NCBI RefSeq assembly: GCF_055900595.2 | Contig: NZ_CM148325.1 | Direction: 5' to 3' (one strand) | DNA: 64,000 nucleotides | Part shown: positions 21,657 through 22,082 of the stretch, one piece after another | Layout: every line of letters starts with the position of its first letter | Numbering within the stretch: the stretch's first letter is position 1 | Translations under genes and position numbers: made by a program | The notes under the pieces: model-generated | What the model was told of the DNA's origin: nothing | The model's database searches: none | Seen by the model: the letters and a program-made list of their open reading frames with translations, nothing else

Positions 21657-21934
21657 CCGCGCATACAAAACGGGTGGTAAAAAAAAAGCAAACGATTATC
21701 CGGCGATCATAGCGGCTTTTTCAACCTAAGTTTGCTGCTTTTTTCCCTTTTCTTGTATTGACGATGAAAAACCAGGCAATTGATGCGCAAACGTTACCGT
21801 CGATGCGCAAAATTACGGCATTTGTAGGTAGCTTGTAGCGAAGAGTTGCAGTAAAAAATCGTGCAAGATGGCAAAAATATTGCGTCTAAAAAGCGTCTTT
21901 TTGCACTGGCGAAGATACGGAGGCGGCATACAAT

Positions 21935-22082
21935 TAAAGTATCAACACCAACCGGAACCTCCACCACGTGCTCGAATGAGGTGTGTTGACGTCGGGGGAA
22001 ACCCTCCTGTGAACCAGCGGGATAGAGTGAAAGACAAAGACCGGAAACAAACTAAAGCGCCCTTGTGGCGCTTTAGTTTTGC
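21935..22082 (+). ncRNA. Candidate small RNA convergent with soxR (possibly ryjA); 5-prime boundary is a guess
   Basis: Plus-strand hairpin (ctaaagcgcc/ggcgctttag) with T-run at 22052-22080 terminates a short plus-strand unit that would overlap the soxR 3-prime end; no coding ORF supported here. Confidence 0.25.
22052..22080. terminator. Bidirectional terminator hairpin at the 3-prime end of soxR (overlaps soxR stop codon)
   Basis: 10-bp stem ctaaagcgcc / ggcgctttag, loop cttgt, T-tract after it on plus strand and T-rich on minus. Confidence 0.5.

Follow-up and report, generated by a model that had tools for sequence, protein, structure and literature searches.

The ghxP-soxR interval

The stretch of DNA analysed here (the window) comprises 64,000 nucleotides of contig NZ_CM148325.1 from RefSeq assembly GCF_055900595.2. 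The locus under study is bounded by two genes of the minus strand, ghxP and soxR, with soxS lying beyond soxR in divergent orientation. The SoxR protein is 100% identical to that of MG1655, and its stop codon, TAA at 22073-22075, falls within a hairpin that also closes a small RNA gene read from the plus strand (Table 1). In the NCBI annotation of genomes identical to the window, soxR is the sole feature listed at this locus.

Table 1. Genes, signals and RNA segments of the sraL locus, in window coordinates
Feature	Position	Strand	Basis and remarks
ghxP, 449-aa permease	20177..21526	-	Pfam Xan_ur_permease, 6.6e-91; ghxP in the annotation of identical genomes
-35-like element CTGGCG (family consensus CTGGCA)	21906..21911	+	17-bp spacer to the -10; conserved positions in 62 species
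-10 TACAAT (21929-21934) followed by A/T-rich discriminator TAAA	21929..21938	+	Conserved in 62 species; fits a sigma-S -10
SraL/RyjA small RNA, 140 nt	21941..22080	+	Full-length match to Rfam RF01408; ends equal those of MG1655 ryjA (b4459)
5' domain closed by helix 1 (21942-21948/21983-21989)	21942..21989	+	4 of 7 pairs changed on both sides; 96.5% of cells paired
Conserved stretch CCGGAACCUC	21952..21961	+	62-sequence alignment; columns invariant or with conservation of 90% or more; for the most part outside the helices of the Rfam structure
Candidate tig-pairing site CAC + GUGCUCG	21965..21974	+	Duplex with CGAGCAC..GUG at -30..-6 of the MG1655 tig leader
Internal hairpin (22005-22010/22017-22022)	22005..22022	+	3 of 6 pairs changed on both sides; 96.5% of cells paired
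Conserved stretch GGGAUAGAGUGAAAGACAAAGACCGG	22019..22044	+	62-sequence alignment; invariant or nearly so, largely single-stranded
Terminator hairpin with U-tail (stem 22049-22061/22067-22079)	22049..22080	both	Folding and compensatory pairs
soxR, 154 aa, MerR family	22073..22537	-	ORF list; Pfam MerR domains; soxR in the annotation of identical genomes

On the other side of the interval, the region upstream of ghxP carries a 34-nt direct repeat (21620-21653 and 21665-21698, 74% identical), each copy ending in GCAAACG(T/A)TTA, and two copies of GATGCGCAAA spaced by 20 nt (21782-21811). We take these repeats and the GATGCGCAAA copies to resemble PurR operator half-sites, which would presumably suit a purine permease. 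The count of GCAAACGNTT repeats upstream of ghxP revealed no enrichment, 39 of 100 shuffles containing as many.

The Rfam scan of the window also returned elements remote from this locus. A full-length match to the selenocysteine insertion element SECIS_2 at 1474-1528 (+) scores 87.1 bits against a gathering score of 70 and therefore implies a selenoprotein gene there, which we presume to be a formate dehydrogenase. Four matches to naRNA4 (CssrE) of 75-80 bits, all on the minus strand (3997-4067, 14615-14686, 49857-49927 and 61979-62050), are probably copies of a repetitive extragenic element. The enterobacterial small RNA STnc430 is matched at 61765-61913 (+) with 72.1 bits, against a gathering score of 47.

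Identity and extent of the small RNA gene

The small RNA encoded at this position in Escherichia coli has been known since 2001. Both names, SraL and RyjA, designate this one RNA (PMC3753932). Judged by its sequence, the plus strand between ghxP and soxR almost certainly carries the gene for SraL, a trans-acting regulatory RNA of Enterobacteriaceae. The whole-window Rfam scan matched the sraL family, RF01408, from end to end of the model (positions 1-142 of 142). The score of 157 bits exceeds the gathering score of 39 (E = 1.2e-35), and this was the sole strong match within the interval 21860-22082 singled out by the preliminary description. A local Rfam search repeated the match (E = 2.5e-37); run permissively, it added nothing other than the palindromic terminator on the opposite strand.

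The MG1655 reference provides an independent view of the boundaries. Its annotated ncRNA ryjA (b4459, 4277926..4278066) shares 8 nt with the 3' end of soxR (4277469..4277933), with ghxP on its other side. In a base-by-base pairwise alignment, the annotated ends fall exactly on window positions 21941 and 22080. The two copies differ at 3 of 141 columns (97.9% identity, 140 nt in the window against 141 nt): A replaces T at 22012, T replaces A at 22028, and the run at 22045-22047 is one A shorter. None of the three differences touches a base pair of the Rfam structure. The window copy hence resembles K-12 b4459 in its ends, consensus structure, -10 element, convergent position and 8-nt overlap with the soxR coding sequence, whereas the 81 nt upstream and soxR itself set the locus apart from K-12 as a rare, diverged allele.

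These results bear out the preliminary description, which had placed a small RNA on the plus strand, convergent with soxR, and had connected it with ryjA, reported at this position in E. coli. Two of the checks it had proposed, alignment to the annotated ryjA and a covariance-model scan, gave the coinciding ends and the full-length match reported above. The RNA stops at 22080, and the interval of the description began 81 nt too early: positions 21860-21940 are promoter and upstream DNA, outside the RNA. The sraL/ryjA gene is here an already known and ordinary feature of which only the 5' boundary needs changing. From homology we infer that it is transcribed in this strain. The practical value of the result is an annotation fix, with an RNA at 21941-22080 and a promoter immediately upstream; its importance for discovery is small, SraL/RyjA being already annotated in the reference E. 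coli genome.

Promoter and shared terminator

The features upstream of the RNA suggest a conserved promoter of the sigma-S type. In the -10 element, A-11, A-9 and T-7 are found in 62 of 62 species, accompanied by T-12 (57/62), T-6 (55/62) and A-5 (60/62). Conservation of the -35-like element resides mainly in G-32 (61 of 62 species) and T-34 (54 of 62), and the spacer between the two elements is unconserved. The first nucleotide of the RNA, +1 at 21941, is correctly spaced from TACAAT and TAAA. Silva et al. 2013 (PMC3753932) consider the sraL -35 characteristic of RpoS promoters, and they also describe a sigma-S -10 with an A/T-rich downstream motif. The possible promoter near 21900-21930 mentioned in the preliminary description was thus close to these elements. 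A simple consensus scan for promoters and terminators found neither the sraL promoter nor its terminator. This silence is not counter-evidence, because the -35 matches the consensus at only 3 of 6 positions and the T-run lies inside the stem.

Further upstream, about 60-70 nt before the sraL start, a short palindrome, GCAAAAATATTGC, occupies 21871-21883 and reads GCGAAAAAATTTCGC in many other species. As a regulator site about 60 nt upstream of +1 it is unconvincing, with arms of only 4-5 bp in most species; it could be such a site or simply A/T-rich upstream DNA.

At the 3' end, the terminator consists of a 13-bp stem with the loop CUUGU. On the plus strand it folds with -19.6 kcal/mol (z = -5.3), a stability that 0 of 200 shuffles attained, and on the minus strand with -21.8 kcal/mol (z = -4.9). 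With A-rich sequence on one flank and T-rich sequence on the other, and with folding equally good on both strands, the hairpin can terminate both convergent genes. The overlap of the SraL terminator with that of soxR on the opposite strand was noted earlier (Viegas et al. 2007, PMC2190706). The T-tract, TTTAGTTTT at 22072-22080, is interrupted and mostly contained within the 3' arm of the hairpin, as is the soxR stop codon. A strong hairpin over this stop codon had been correctly perceived in the preliminary description; its coordinates are shifted here from 22052-22080 to 22049-22079, and it does not belong to the small RNA alone.

Conservation and structure across Enterobacteriaceae

Homologues were collected by scanning one genome per species for exact copies of a 16-mer in the core of the RNA (window 21991-22006) and filtering the matches by whole-RNA similarity. 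About half of the 120 matches in the genome collection were chance occurrences in unrelated phyla, which this filter removed. The remaining set consists of sraL homologues at 62 species loci of Enterobacteriaceae, including Escherichia, Citrobacter, Enterobacter, Raoultella, Kosakonia, Cedecea, Buttiauxella, Mangrovibacter and others. The segment 21991-22006 is invariant in this set by construction, because it served as the search key.

The association with soxR extends over nearly the entire set: in 61 of 62 species the opposite strand shows a soxR match immediately beyond the 3' end of the RNA. The sole exception is Citrobacter sedlakii (locus L060, 1-1742), where a 95% identical sraL homologue and ghxP are found and the 1.6 kb downstream hold no soxR match. 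In most species outside Escherichia, SoxR aligns over 151-152 residues only and the stop codon lies outside the hairpin. Eight loci (L053, L058, L071, L114, L116, L022, L078 and L111, from Enterobacter, Lelliottia, Citrobacter youngae and others) show about 90-190 nt between the end of sraL and the end of soxR, without overlap; something was therefore inserted between the convergent genes there.

The Rfam structure was mapped onto the 62-sequence alignment. The window copy preserves each of the 38 consensus pairs. Across the 62 sequences, standard pairs occupy 94.5% of the cells; sliding the partner columns by 1-3 positions lowers this share to 40-54%. Changes on both sides were found for 11 pairs, and the observed covariation was reached by 0 of 500 shuffles. 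It is concentrated in three helices, namely the 5' closing helix, the internal hairpin and the terminator, where 2 of 13 pairs show compensatory changes across species. Thermodynamic folding did not distinguish the RNA from shuffled sequences, with z = -1.66 for the whole RNA and z = +0.78 for the body without the terminator. The support for the structure comes from covariation and not from energy, because the RNA body folds no better than shuffles. On this basis, the sraL structure is supported by covariation.

The alignment also draws attention to two conserved stretches with little pairing. The first, CCGGAACCUC, may be a segment for target recognition or protein binding; the second, GGGAUAGAGUGAAAGACAAAGACCGG, is considered below with the rho leader. 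The variable loop of the 5' domain (alignment columns 118-144) received an extra GT-rich insertion of about 27 nt in L050 (Cedecea neteri) and L078 (labelled Enterobacter sp. Cy-643), and a shorter form of it in L111. The closing helix is retained in the loci with the insertion.

A diverged allele within Escherichia coli

The locus belongs to an allele that is rare in the species. Among 5,420 complete E. coli genomes, 8 match 21800-22120 at 99% identity or more, and most are 90-95% identical. Compared with MG1655, soxR carries 54 nucleotide differences, all synonymous, with changes at 49 of 155 third codon positions; identity drops to 66% over 21800-21899, and the 81 nt immediately upstream of sraL contain 17 differences. 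ghxP and soxS, on the outside, are about 96% identical to MG1655, and the soxR-soxS spacer is 100% identical. The deeply diverged block at 21800-22537 looks like an old recombination import.

Set within this block, the 3 differences in the 141 columns of sraL are fewer than those at soxR third positions (Fisher p = 1e-12) and in the upstream 81 nt (p = 4e-6). Changes in the RNA are far rarer than in the surrounding diverged block, which shows strong purifying selection on the RNA sequence. As a natural experiment, the rare allele offers a clean demonstration of this selection on a small RNA within one species, a mildly useful by-product of the analysis.

Alternative readings of the locus

Two readings would dispense with an RNA gene altogether. 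The conserved sequence might amount to the soxR terminator together with downstream regulatory DNA, for instance sites serving ghxP. The hairpin works also as a minus-strand terminator of soxR and the generic promoter scan found no promoter here, but the conservation reaches 108 nt past the hairpin, compensatory base-pair changes occur in helices unrelated to soxR termination, and a -10 element with positions shared by all 62 species stands at the right distance upstream of the 5' end of the RNA. The reading is moreover contradicted by published work, in which northern blots of E. coli and Salmonella show SraL at a length of about 140 nt, with accumulation in stationary phase (PMC3753932, PMC2190706), and RNA-seq detects RyjA in E. 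coli (PMC5389530); we regard it as highly improbable. That the region encodes a protein, be it the ATG-initiated 163-aa ORF present at 21868-22359 or a short peptide translated from the RNA, is scarcely credible. The start codon of this ORF is situated 73 nt upstream of the RNA 5' end and its frame, as the preliminary description had it, runs antisense through soxR. No Pfam match was obtained for the 163-aa ORF (plus strand) or for three others in the gap. The frame is not conserved: because of a 1-nt indel, its equivalent in MG1655 stops after 62 aa. The variation across species takes the form of paired-base covariation and is not codon-like. Coding potential in the gap was rejected on the strength of the absent Pfam match and of the truncation in MG1655, in agreement with the earlier opinion that no credible coding frame exists between ghxP and soxR.

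Another interpretation keeps the RNA and alters its role: SraL would act mainly as a cis antisense to the 3' end of soxR mRNA, through the roughly 35-40 nt of complementary terminator that the two convergent transcripts have in common. Duplex formation and cutting by RNase III would then couple sigma-S activity to the fate of soxR mRNA, or soxR transcription to SraL decay. Such a role would fit the 8-nt overlap between the small RNA and the soxR coding sequence, the terminator hairpin common to both in its entirety and folding on both strands, and the presence of soxR on the opposite strand adjoining the RNA 3' end in 61 of 62 species. The band pattern of SraL is altered in an RNase III mutant, and cleavage within the soxR-overlapping terminator has been suggested (Viegas 2007, PMC2190706). 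However, the overlap of the coding sequence is not conserved, since soxR ends 5-150 nt past the small RNA in many genera, and the strongest conservation is found in the non-overlapping 108-nt body instead of the overlap. Citrobacter sedlakii keeps sraL with no soxR match in the 1.6 kb downstream. The published targets of SraL are regulated in trans and were validated by compensatory mutations (PMC3753932), and the SraL literature examined reports no effect on soxR. A mainly cis-acting SraL is in our view unlikely. The complementarity of the two transcripts is confined to the shared terminator and 8 nt of coding sequence. A milder version, in which SraL retains its trans targets and in addition SraL and soxR mRNA regulate each other through this fully complementary terminator, seems slightly more doubtful still. 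If true, the sigma-S general stress response and the SoxRS oxidative-stress switch would be connected by way of RNase III cutting a duplex of about 35-40 bp, and the rare diverged allele of soxR and the sraL promoter could alter the strength of this connection.

Expected regulation, targets and decay

As a trans-acting RNA, SraL can be assigned a likely mode of action from published work, mostly carried out in Salmonella. The RNA polymerase associated with RpoS would transcribe it when cells enter stationary phase or experience osmotic stress. A Salmonella rpoS mutant contains hardly any SraL (Silva et al. 2013, PMC3753932), a promoter-lacZ fusion is RpoS-dependent and salt-induced, and RpoS chromatin immunoprecipitation enriched the sraL promoter more than 100-fold (PMC3753932).

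Once made, the RNA would bind the tig leader by base pairing immediately ahead of the Shine-Dalgarno sequence and lower the level of trigger-factor mRNA. The corresponding reduction of tig mRNA in Salmonella proceeds via an interaction of 7 + 3 bp at this place; compensatory mutations in the chromosome and gel shifts both confirmed it (PMC3753932). Our windowed duplex search recovered the 7 + 3 bp match in the window copy with an energy no better than that of shuffles (31 of 60 were as good). The assignment of the candidate tig site consequently rests on the text of the paper, because the duplex score does not exceed that of shuffles. A predicted energy within the range of shuffles is usual for seeds as short as 7 + 3 bp.

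A second target would be the rho leader, where pairing of SraL would cover a putative Rho-loading site, prevent premature termination and yield more full-length rho mRNA. According to secondary accounts of Silva 2019 (PMC6582626, PMC12360218), SraL in Salmonella base-pairs with a putative Rho-utilisation site in the rho leader and shields the transcript from premature termination. In the windowed search, which for rho was marginal against shuffles (4 of 60 did as well), 22017-22044 proved complementary to positions -151..-127 of the MG1655 rho leader (-21.2 kcal/mol); the conserved, largely single-stranded stretch at 22019..22044 may be considered a candidate rho-pairing site. The top rho matches at -290..-230 were discounted, being located at or upstream of the presumed rho promoter. 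Whole-length duplexes of SraL with the tig and rho leaders were meaningless end to end and no better than shuffles (65/300 and 224/300, respectively).

The abundance of the RNA would be affected by both Hfq and ProQ. Hfq stabilises SraL about 3-fold in Salmonella (PMC2190706); for E. coli, the same article cites the Wassarman study as leaving Hfq-SraL binding unconfirmed by co-immunoprecipitation. ProQ supports the action of SraL at rho and, partly, the level of SraL (PMC7192607, PMC6315103). Decay would start with polyadenylation by poly(A) polymerase I and continue with PNPase and the degradosome. These three activities have been reported to drive the decay of SraL (PMC2190706), and RyjA of E. 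coli is polyadenylated and shows one of the largest increases of any RNA in a pcnB mutant (PMC5389530).

Comparison with other regulatory RNAs

Other enterobacterial small RNAs, such as SdsR, depend on RpoS: they are transcribed by sigma-S polymerase in stationary phase and regulate by base pairing. SraL is alike in both respects; in sequence and structure it is unrelated to them, and its targets differ. Set against other RpoS-dependent small RNAs, SraL has a reported association with ProQ besides its dependence on Hfq. In its action at rho, SraL is comparable to DsrA, ArcZ and RprA, which block Rho-dependent termination in the rpoS leader, with a proposed pairing upstream of the ribosome-binding site that would hinder Rho loading. 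Unlike for these three RNAs, the target shown in Salmonella is rho itself, and SraL would therefore feed into the autoregulation of Rho.
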